Assembly: GCA_964423525.1 (NCBI GenBank)
Contig: CAYRFU010000005.1
Span: 1 to 53,938 of the forward strand
Source: an uncultured Burkholderiales bacterium
GTDB taxonomy: Bacteria; Vulcanimicrobiota; Xenobia; Xenobiales; JADMJV01
Reading direction: 5' to 3'
DNA length: 53,938 nt
Shown here: piece by piece, positions 49,777-51,278 of the stretch
How the letters are laid out: every line of letters begins with the position of its first letter
How positions within the stretch are numbered: the stretch's first letter is position 1
Position numbers and translations under genes: made by a program
The notes under the pieces: generated by a model
Databases searched by the model: none
What the model was told of the DNA's origin: nothing
What the model saw: only the letters and a program-made list of their open reading frames with translations

Positions 49777-51278
49777 TCACTGAATCAACTCTGAAAGTTC
49801 ACCCGGAGTGAAGACAGGGGCCGAACAACGCCCCTGGCCACAGACAAAGGCGGCCGGACGACCCAGGTCGGGATAGTCGACAGCCGTATAGGGAGGTAGC
49901 GGAGTGCCGGGCCACCAGCGGTCGACTCGCAAGTAGCGGGTCGGACTCTTGAGAGCCTGGTCAACCAGAGCTTGCCCACTCTCCTCTTCGGGCCGAGCCA
50001 CCACGGTAATATGAAGCGGGTCCGTTCGATTCTCCTGGACGGCCAGCAGGATTCCGCCGGGATAAAAACGGTCGGTGACGCCTTCGATGCCAAAAAAGTC
50101 GAGGCAGCTGAGAGCCAGATCTCGATGATGTTGGCTGCCTGTGTGGTGATAGAGGAGATTAGCAAAGCGAGCGGCCGAGATGTTCTCGTCGCGATGACGA
50201 TAGTCCGAATCCTGGGCCGTGAGCAAACCATCTCGGCCCGACTGGCGAAATTCCCGGTCGATAAAGTCAGCGGCTCGAATAGCACGCTCGAGCCATTCTC
50301 GCTGACCTGTGACTTGGTAGAGAGTGAGAAAGGCCTGGCCACAGGCCAAAGTGTCACCCAGGAACAACGCGTTTCCCTGGCCGTGGCGAAAGCCGCCGCC
50401 GGGGACCTCCCTGTTGGCGAGCACCCATTCTGCGGCCGCAACGGCTCGGTCCAGGACCTCAGGGCGGTCAGCCACGGCGGCGAAAAGAGCGAGCGCCTCG
50501 ATGGCCCAGCCGTTCTCGCGAGCGTAAAGGTTGGTATCGACCCGAGGCAGTCCTCGGCGTCGCCGCTGCTGGTCGGACAAGGCAAAATAGTCATGAGCTT
50601 TCACTCCCTCCCTCCGCCGCCAGCCGCCACCGGGAATCTTTCACCGCAGCTACTTGAGCGATGGGAGAAACGCCACGCTTTCCTCTACGACGAGAACCTG
50701 GGAGGTTGGGGGAGCACCCACAAGTTCGTCAACGCGCCGGTGGTGGAGTATTGCCTGATGCGCGCATGGGAAGGCGACCAGAAAGAGCGACAGCGAGCTG
50801 TGACAACCCTTGATGCCAATCTGGCTTTGATCGATCCGGAATGGGGTGGAGTCTACCAGTATTCTGACAGTGGGCGATGGGACTCTCCCCATTATGAGAA
50901 GATTATGGAGACCCAGGCCGGCAATCTGCGAGTTTACAGCATAGCCTGACAGGCGGGCCAGCTCGCGACCCTCGGAATCGAACACAATGGTGGCTGGCCA
51001 ACCGTAATCTTCGTAGCGATGAGCGAGATCGGGCCGGAAATCCTGATCGACTTTGACCGGTATGACCTTGGTGCTCAGAATCTCAACAACCCGGGCATCT
51101 TGGTAAGTCGTCTTCTCCATGACGTACACCAGTGGCACCAAACGGCCTCCAGGTCGAGCAAAACGATCTTATTTTCTGACTGCGCCTTTTTGAAGGCGCC
51201 TTCCCAACCTTGCCAGGGGATCTCACCGGCCCATACCGGCGCCGTCAGCAGGAACCAGCAGAGACAGATGGATCTCAT
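49777..51278 (-). pseudogene. Disrupted DUF255/YyaL-type thioredoxin-like protein (frameshift plus internal inverted segment)
   Basis: Minus 51278-51126: signal peptide + IPWQGW...AVWCHWC. After a 1-nt loss the frame continues VMEKTTY...GWPATIVFDSEGRELARLSGY. The next expected part is encoded on the PLUS strand at ~50605-50946. The minus strand resumes at 50604 and runs to the stop at 49777. Confidence 0.75.

Follow-up and report, generated by a model that had tools for sequence, protein, structure and literature searches.

The window analysed here, a stretch of 53,938 nucleotides from an uncultured bacterium, carries a DUF255/YyaL/SSP411-family gene that is broken within its own coding sequence, and we consider it likely that this gene is a pseudogene, recently and irreversibly inactivated in vivo by a microhomology-mediated deletion-inversion-deletion. 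If the ancestral gene is divided into five consecutive segments, A to E, the sequence argues for the structure A - inverted C - E, in which B and D have been lost, rather than for a clean in-place flip of the middle.

Members of the DUF255/YyaL/SSP411 (SPATA20) family combine a secreted, thioredoxin-like N-terminal domain (Pfam PF03190, Thioredox_DsbH) with an (alpha/alpha)6-like C-terminal domain, and solved relatives are available in the PDB (7TKV and 3IRA, by sequence match from the orthologue-like protein P0001). In this family a single collinear ORF of about 560-600 aa is expected. No such ORF exists at the broken locus, where intact homologues used as tblastn queries (several, including P0001, P0002, P0004, P0010 and the orthologue on contig L090 described below) match the region as exactly four pieces, in frames -3, -2, +1 and -2. 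These pieces, the lesions that separate them and the upstream neighbour are as follows.

51275..51847, minus strand: intact SCO1/SenC-family gene, the upstream neighbour (Pfam PF02630, E 1e-23; recorded as P0240).
51126..51278, minus strand, frame -3: N1, the start, signal peptide and first thioredoxin-like part to ...LEAVWCHWC, 51 codons (ORF list, tblastn, PF03190).
51124..51126, minus strand: site of a 1-nt deletion (sequence; HSP frame change at 51126; same in the Logan contig of run X1).
50941..51123, minus strand, frame -2: N2, the remaining thioredoxin-like domain, VMEKTTYQDARV...GWPATIVFDSEGRELARLSGY, 61 codons (tblastn, 63-73% identity; PF03190).
50941..50946, both strands: junction 1, 6 nt, GGCTAT on the minus and ATAGCC on the plus strand (HSP ends at 50941 and 50946; codon view against L090).
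50611..50940 (50605-50946 with the ambiguous junction bases), plus strand, frame +1: M, the inverted middle, PPPPAATGNLSPQLLERWEKRHAFLYDENLGGWGSTHKFVNAPVVEYCL...DPEWGGVYQYSDSGRWDSPHYEKIMETQAGNLRVYS (tblastn).
50605..50613, both strands: junction 2, 9 nt, AGGGAGGGA on the minus strand (HSP ends at 50605/50611 and 50613; codon view).
49777..50604, minus strand, frame -2: the C-terminal 275 codons, (V)KAHDYFALSDQQRRRRGLPRVDTNLYARENGWAIEAL...GRCSAPVFTPGELSELIQ, rear of the (alpha/alpha)6-like domain (ORF list, tblastn).

Translation from the native ATG at 51278 reads MRSICLCWFLLTAPVWAGEIPWQ...LEAVWCHWC on the minus strand, that is, ...IPWQGWEGAFKKAQSENKIVLLDLEAVWCHWC. After the TGT at 51128-51126 the sequence continues AC GTC ATG, as against TGY CAC GTN ATG in homologues; the missing base is the C that opens the invariant second His codon of the CHWCH motif (51125/51126), and its absence moves the frame from -3 to -2. 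The second His of this active site-like motif is conserved in at least 95% of 119 homologues, and at the broken gene the motif is not readable in one frame. Translation from the native start accordingly ends as a 67-aa truncated product, at a stop at 51075-51077; were the frameshift ignored, reading into the inverted segment would still stop at 50650. In the second frame, N2 reads VMEKTTYQ...ARLSGY and ends at 50941, below which the minus strand has no family similarity until 50613-50604. Between these points it is the plus strand, from 50605/50611 to 50946, that codes for the family sequence, PPPPAATGNLSPQLLERWEKRH...SPHYEKIMETQAGNLRVYSIA (tblastn, E 1e-41 to 1e-49, 51-68% identity). The minus-strand reading then resumes at 50613-50604 as (REG)VKAHDYFALSD..., that is, with REGVKAHDYF, and its homology extends from 50613 to 49792 as an HSP (tblastn, E 1e-87 to 1e-105); the stop lies at 49777-49779. 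With two of the queries the plus-strand HSP was extended back to 50473/50509, which we set aside as a gapped, low-identity chance alignment antisense to the conserved C-terminal coding region. No second copy of the gene is present within the 54-kb window.

This anatomy bears out, in all its main coordinates, an initial annotation made from the letters of the sequence, which had described a minus-strand start with a signal peptide at 51278 (now supported by the ORF list and by tblastn with homologues), a His codon one base short at ~51125, a second frame running to ~50941, a nonsensical minus strand beyond it, a plus-strand middle at ~50605-50946 and a return of minus-strand homology from ~50604 to the stop at 49777. 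Alignment to intact orthologues, which the same annotation had proposed as a means of fixing the breakpoints, places them at 50941-50946 and 50605-50613.

All four pieces align with full-length family members, at 50-59% identity overall, and the conceptually restored protein of 502 aa (against 560-600 aa in family homologues) matches full-length DUF255/YyaL proteins at E 2.6e-182, so that the piecewise homology cannot be due to chance. Taken separately, the N-terminal pieces score 29.2 bits (N1) and 34 bits (N2) against PF03190, for which the Pfam gathering score cut-off is 27 bits, while the restored sequence reaches 80.1 bits. The locus differs from the DUF255/YyaL family in being non-collinear, in the frameshifted His of CHWCH and in the absence of ~24 and ~39 conserved codons; it derives from a family member and is not itself a functional one. 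The gene's start is overlapped by the stop of the SCO1 gene (ATGA), which places the two in one operon, and the 515-aa ORF downstream of the broken gene is intact.

The missing codons became apparent when the pieces were set against homologue alignments (of 8 sequences first, then of 119). Relative to the 119 homologues, and counting majority-occupied columns, ~25 alignment columns are absent at junction 1 and ~42 at junction 2. The first loss removes ~24 codons (~72 nt) after ...SGY, with the consensus V.P.RM...L..L..DP.P..., and the second ~39 codons (~117 nt) after ...VYSIA, with the consensus YAQ..DP.YL.AA....YL..FL.SP.GAFY.SQDADL.QG, which takes in the near-invariant SQDAD block. In L090 numbering the missing residues are aa 113-136 and 247-285, and the two gaps together contain 15 columns that are at least 95% conserved among the 119 homologues (L..DP.P and FL..G.F..SQDAD..G). 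A search for the deleted stretches elsewhere in the window returned only scattered chance matches, with E 0.017 or worse. Thus, where the initial annotation had the middle inverted in exactly the position and polarity of an in-situ inversion, the polarity holds and the exactness does not, since ~24 and ~39 codons that it had not noticed missing are lost at the junctions.

The two junctions were also examined codon by codon. At junction 1 the minus-strand GGC TAT supplies the invariant G-Y of SGY, and the plus-strand ATA GCC supplies the I-A of ...VYSIA, which aligns with the L-A of the homologues' VYSLA. At junction 2 the minus-strand AGG GAG GGA gives R-E-G (R-Q-G in L090), just before K-A-x-D-Y-F, and the plus strand gives S-L-P, running into PPPP as in L090. 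The overlap between opposite-strand HSPs thus amounts to 6 nt at junction 1 and to as many as 9 nt at junction 2, and on either strand the shared bases agree with conserved residues. At both junctions the overlaps appear to indicate breakpoint microhomology, possibly of 3-9 nt at junction 2, where the breakpoint falls inside a G/A-rich run; such lengths are estimates, read against a nearest orthologue that is 54-69% identical in place of the ancestral sequence. If the ancestor read ATA GCC TAT at junction 1, the A end TCAGGCTAT and the complementary ATAGGCTAT would have 7 nt in common. In L090 the residue that follows LA is Y.

The two junction deletions decide between the three readings that the initial annotation had offered, namely a fixed rearrangement, an intragenic invertible segment and a local assembly error. 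Under the second of these, the middle would be a programmed intragenic inverton by which the gene is turned on and off or recoded. Such elements are known and can bring premature stops (Chanin et al., bioRxiv 10.1101/2023.03.11.532203), and the broken gene resembles them in that the reversed segment, 342 nt long and with its codons in phase with the flanks, lies wholly inside the coding sequence and is accompanied by premature termination. What defines an inverton, however, is two inverted repeats on which a site-specific recombinase acts (Chanin et al., bioRxiv 10.1101/2023.03.11.532203), and the broken gene has neither repeats nor, within the 54-kb window, an invertase. The best flanking inverted repeat in a mismatch-tolerant search is one of 11 nt with one mismatch. 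One of its arms is displaced inward from its junction by 14 nt and the other outward by 42 nt, and 15% of shuffles do as well, which is nothing beyond chance and agrees with the initial annotation, which had found no flanking inverted repeat longer than ~6 nt; likewise, none of the about 45 ORFs of the window carries a recombinase, integrase or transposase domain. Flipped back, the gene would still be short of ~63 codons including the SQDAD block, and still frameshifted. Given the two junction deletions and the frameshift, re-inversion cannot restore the gene, and neither orientation codes for the protein, a loss of sequence that makes the change irreversible. The contigs show a single orientation. 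An invertible segment is hardly credible on these grounds, and we note that scans for invertons could wrongly flag this DUF255 locus.

We then compared the locus with its relatives. The best gene-level matches reach 54-59% identity in the protein database, as against 43% among species-representative genomes and 42% among JGI metagenomes. A scan of genome contigs with the restored protein was saturated by the WCHWCHVM motif and gave no close relative (best 43% identity), and a scan of metagenome contigs with the C-terminal piece gave two loci only, both at 42%. Exact matches to products of the region in the assembly index (the 275-, 231-, 190-, 67- and 118-aa ORFs and RtcA) are not on record, and the genomic contexts of the homologues P0003 and P0007 show no synteny with the window. 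A syntenic orthologue was found through the upstream SCO1/SenC neighbour, which is 69% identical. It lies on L090, a 9.2-kb contig syntenic with the window at 45.3-52.5 kb, in which the shared order, at 52-80% amino-acid identity, is Fer4 (80%), Crp/MerR regulator (78%), RtcA (62%), DUF2071 (52%), DUF255, SCO1 (69%) and CDP-OH transferase (CDP-alcohol phosphatidyltransferase, 70%). The DUF255 gene at the same place in L090 is intact, collinear and 560 aa long. Since this syntenic orthologue is intact and collinear, the arrangement in the window is a derived one, and so far it is unique. Across the homologous loci fetched, 82 of 89 gave one collinear HSP and none of the 89 has an inverted middle.

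The rearranged sequence is present in the sequenced DNA. Among public runs the region occurs in one only, X1, a 2018 microbial mat metagenome that holds 82% of the region's 31-mers and was viewed as Logan k=31 contigs from a single sample at ~8x. One Logan contig covers 50539-52472 with 0 differences and spans both junctions and the frameshift at a mean depth of 8.1, a mean over its length, so that k-mers at the junctions may be less frequent than this; the neighbouring contigs of the same organism, over 36-54 kb, have depths of 6.6-8.25. We considered the contig gap at 50405-50538 as a possible problem and discounted it, as contigs break every 1-3 kb throughout and the bridged sequence codes for conserved residues. 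The contig is unbroken at either junction, and there can therefore be no competing branch of any weight. Across the three study runs, the search for a related intact allele or any other gene-matching contig at 80% likeness or more turned up only a spurious match of 35 nt in run X3. At the level of contigs, which drop rare variants, X1 shows the rearranged form only, and no other allele is to be seen in the sampled population. As for the quality of the assembly, other ORFs of the window match their Pfam models at nearly full length (ferrochelatase 2-316/317, peptidase M19 2-319/319, carboxyl transferase 2-493/493, RTC 1-221/221), which shows that it is not generally frameshifted. Rfam and tRNA scans of the window found nothing.

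These data bear on the possibility that the organism's own gene is intact and that the scar is an amplification or library artefact, such as a phi29/MDA-type chimera fixed early, or an artefact of assembly. The typical MDA chimera is described as 'inverted sequences with intervening deletions', with priming at 2-21 nt of complementarity (Lasken & Stockwell 2007, PMC1855051), and each junction described here resembles it in combining an inversion and a deletion where a short run of bases is complementary; the sequence is, moreover, seen in a single run, at about 8x and as contigs only. Such chimeras are, however, individually rare and random, whereas here two junctions and a frameshift lie on one contig, at a depth of 8.1 against 6.6-8.25 around it. 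Unlike MDA products, the scar belongs to a consensus at full depth that is even over 18 kb, and its two coordinated junctions restore the original direction. No alternative branch breaks the k=31 contig at either junction, and no contig, even at 80% likeness, carries either the deleted stretches or an intact related allele. Neither junction has repeats of at least k bases, without which a de Bruijn assembler cannot be misled into inventing an inversion. An artefact of one kind or the other is thus unlikely. A local assembly error in particular, as entertained initially, is disfavoured by a contig that crosses both junctions without a difference, a judgement made at contig level; the fixed rearrangement gains from the intact, collinear gene of L090 and from full local depth in an independent assembly.

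The pieces have not decayed further. The four together contain 0 stops in 499 codons, which, with 64 effective stop-target sites, implies that neutral divergence has stayed below about 5% from the time the gene was inactivated. Of 108 conserved columns 106 are kept, as compared with a mean of 98.5% in intact homologues, and the two residues lost are the His at the frameshift and a single G replaced by A. The restored protein is 56-59% identical to homologues that are themselves 52-63% identical to one another. The stop-free pieces, the retention of 106 of the 108 conserved residues and an identity within the family range show that the damage is recent.

An open C-terminal piece also raises the question of gene fission with retained function, in which the C-terminal 275 codons would have been freed as an independently translated protein. 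This piece is a separate, intact ORF with a good Shine-Dalgarno sequence and spacing (GTG at 50604, GGAGG 6 nt upstream), and C-terminal-only homologues of 270-350 aa do exist on long contigs, for instance P0239, which occurs on 24 contigs after MbnB/DUF692-HvfC_N-DoxX; such stand-alone C-terminal YyaL-like genes, found in Chthoniobacterales operons, offer a parallel for a freed ORF. These homologues are, however, only about 42% identical and belong to a different operon. The fragment has no signal peptide, no thioredoxin domain and no front half of the barrel, including SQDAD, and the intactness of its ORF is equally well explained by recency, the other three pieces also being free of stops. 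As a called protein (P0121) it forms a cluster of one on one contig. From its sequence context it is distinctly unlikely that this ORF is expressed alone, and a fission with retained function is very improbable. A long shot, too, is the proposition that the locus is either a gene fission whose GGAGG was placed by junction 2 or a scar that constitutes a rare natural MMBIR-like record in a wild bacterium.

Having set these alternatives aside, we return to a microhomology-mediated deletion-inversion-deletion as the preferred explanation. Inverted microhomology at both joins, the lack of long repeats and the loss of sequence together form the signature of template switching or end joining. A single illegitimate, microhomology-mediated event would have put the remaining parts together in the order A - reverse-complement(C) - E, with loss of the intervening B (~72 nt) and D (~117 nt). 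This may have taken place through two consecutive replication template switches of the fork-stalling/MMBIR type, or through end joining guided by microhomology, following two breaks; from the scar alone the two cannot be told apart. Bacteria are capable of microhomology-dependent alternative end joining. The likeness of the broken gene to known MMBIR and end-joining rearrangements lies in an inverted segment with loss at both junctions and a few bases of inverted microhomology, and with neither long repeats nor a recombinase. Template switching or MMBIR at short inverted repeats, and also rejoining guided by microhomology, have been discussed for small inversions (PMC8755829; PMC5453318), although human, primate and yeast genomes are the source of most known descriptions, which concern microinversions under 33 bp with precise copying, whereas the DUF255 segment is about 340 bp long, has flanking deletions and comes from an uncultured bacterium, with the mechanism being read from the scar only. 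The separate 1-nt deletion, 180 nt upstream, might belong to the same error-prone repair tract or represent an independent hit, on which we can only speculate. It is somewhat surprising to find two lesions, a frameshift and a rearrangement, in an otherwise undecayed gene, and either a shared cause or a gene that was already dispensable could account for it.

The event belongs to a known class of microhomology-mediated complex rearrangement, and as such is tidy but ordinary; the broken DUF255 gene raises no new question of mechanism or function. Its main value is for annotation and quality control, since gene callers split the locus into 'hypothetical' ORFs, including a spurious 325-aa plus-strand ORF and the 275-aa C-terminal ORF. 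In addition, it offers a clean case, from nature and from an uncultured bacterium, of a deletion-inversion-deletion scar that shows microhomology. With respect to the biology of the organism, it indicates that the SCO1-linked DUF255 gene is dispensable in this lineage. In relatives, SCO1(-DUF255) comes after the genes for a caa3-type cytochrome oxidase and CtaG, an order from which one may suppose a periplasmic redox role for the DUF255 protein in copper or oxidase maturation. By this line of reasoning, the loss of the gene suggests that such a role may be unneeded in this lineage or covered elsewhere.

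In the broken DUF255/YyaL-family gene, an imperfect 9-nt tandem, TGG TGC CAC / TGG TGT [C]AC (window 51131-51140 / 51124-51128), codes for the CHWCH motif, and its second unit carries the 1-nt deletion. The lesion lies outside any homopolymer run, and is therefore not at a typical sequencing-error site. Downstream, the boundary between the inverted middle and the C-terminal piece (junction 2) has created a GGAGG 6 nt 5' of GTG 50604 (window 50605-50624), a good predicted ribosome-binding site for the C-terminal 275-aa ORF, which is on record in the protein database as a called protein (P0121). 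A long frame is also open on the plus strand:

49972-50949, plus strand, 325-aa ORF, a frame antisense to the C-terminal piece fused to the inverted middle segment

Homology in this ORF is limited to its last ~114 codons, and it is likely mis-annotated as a gene.

Genes resembling the C-terminal part of YyaL alone were found elsewhere, on Chthoniobacterales-type contigs in which MbnB/DUF692, HvfC_N and DoxX are followed by a 270-aa gene; the identical protein is present on 24 contigs. A long-read-style contig, L089, carries a longer version in the same context:

L085-L088, 4001-4813, 270-aa YyaL-C-terminal-like gene
L089, 3127-4822, full-length YyaL-like gene broken by four frame changes

Recurrent truncation could explain this pattern, as could a domain that truly stands alone, or sequencing error.

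Comparison with the syntenic relative contig L090 revealed differences around the broken gene, beginning with an ORF that has no counterpart at that position in L090 and no match in Pfam or NCBIfam:

48210-49757, minus strand, 515-aa ORF between the broken gene and DUF2071

Conversely, two L090 genes are missing from the window: a 119-aa ORF that separates SCO1 from DUF255, and an epimerase flanked by RtcA and the Crp/MerR regulator. These differences imply that the neighbourhood was remodelled more than once. Two further regions of the window were annotated:

193-10451, plus strand, aerotolerance-type MoxR AAA-DUF58-BatA-VWA operon, including two unannotatable ORFs (1160-2896 and 3816-5129)
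39110-42373, plus strand, 1087-aa ORF whose sole match is a weak PRTase-CE hit (27.2 bits, at cut-off)

Additional contigs from the mat metagenome X1, 90-95% alike to the window and fitting only in part, cover three regions:

36035-36615
41980-42902
53342-53938

Their alignments skip 62, 67, 486 and 142 nt, and their depth spikes to 21x and 63x. The window genes beneath them are those for phosphofructokinase, carboxyl transferase and a cyclase-domain protein, and the contigs probably represent conserved genes from other, more abundant mat organisms.

In the window (51275-52463), no cox genes lie beside the SCO1-DUF255 pair, past which the following feature was found:

52463 to window end, FHA-like/adenylate cyclase ORF, past the CDP-OH transferase

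In the two nearest relatives (L090:1-8912; L091:1-11296), SCO1 comes immediately after the genes of a caa3-type cytochrome c oxidase (COX1-4, cytochrome c, CtaG), and in L090 the intact DUF255 gene comes next. This gene order suggests a joint role for the DUF255 protein and SCO1 in copper or oxidase maturation.
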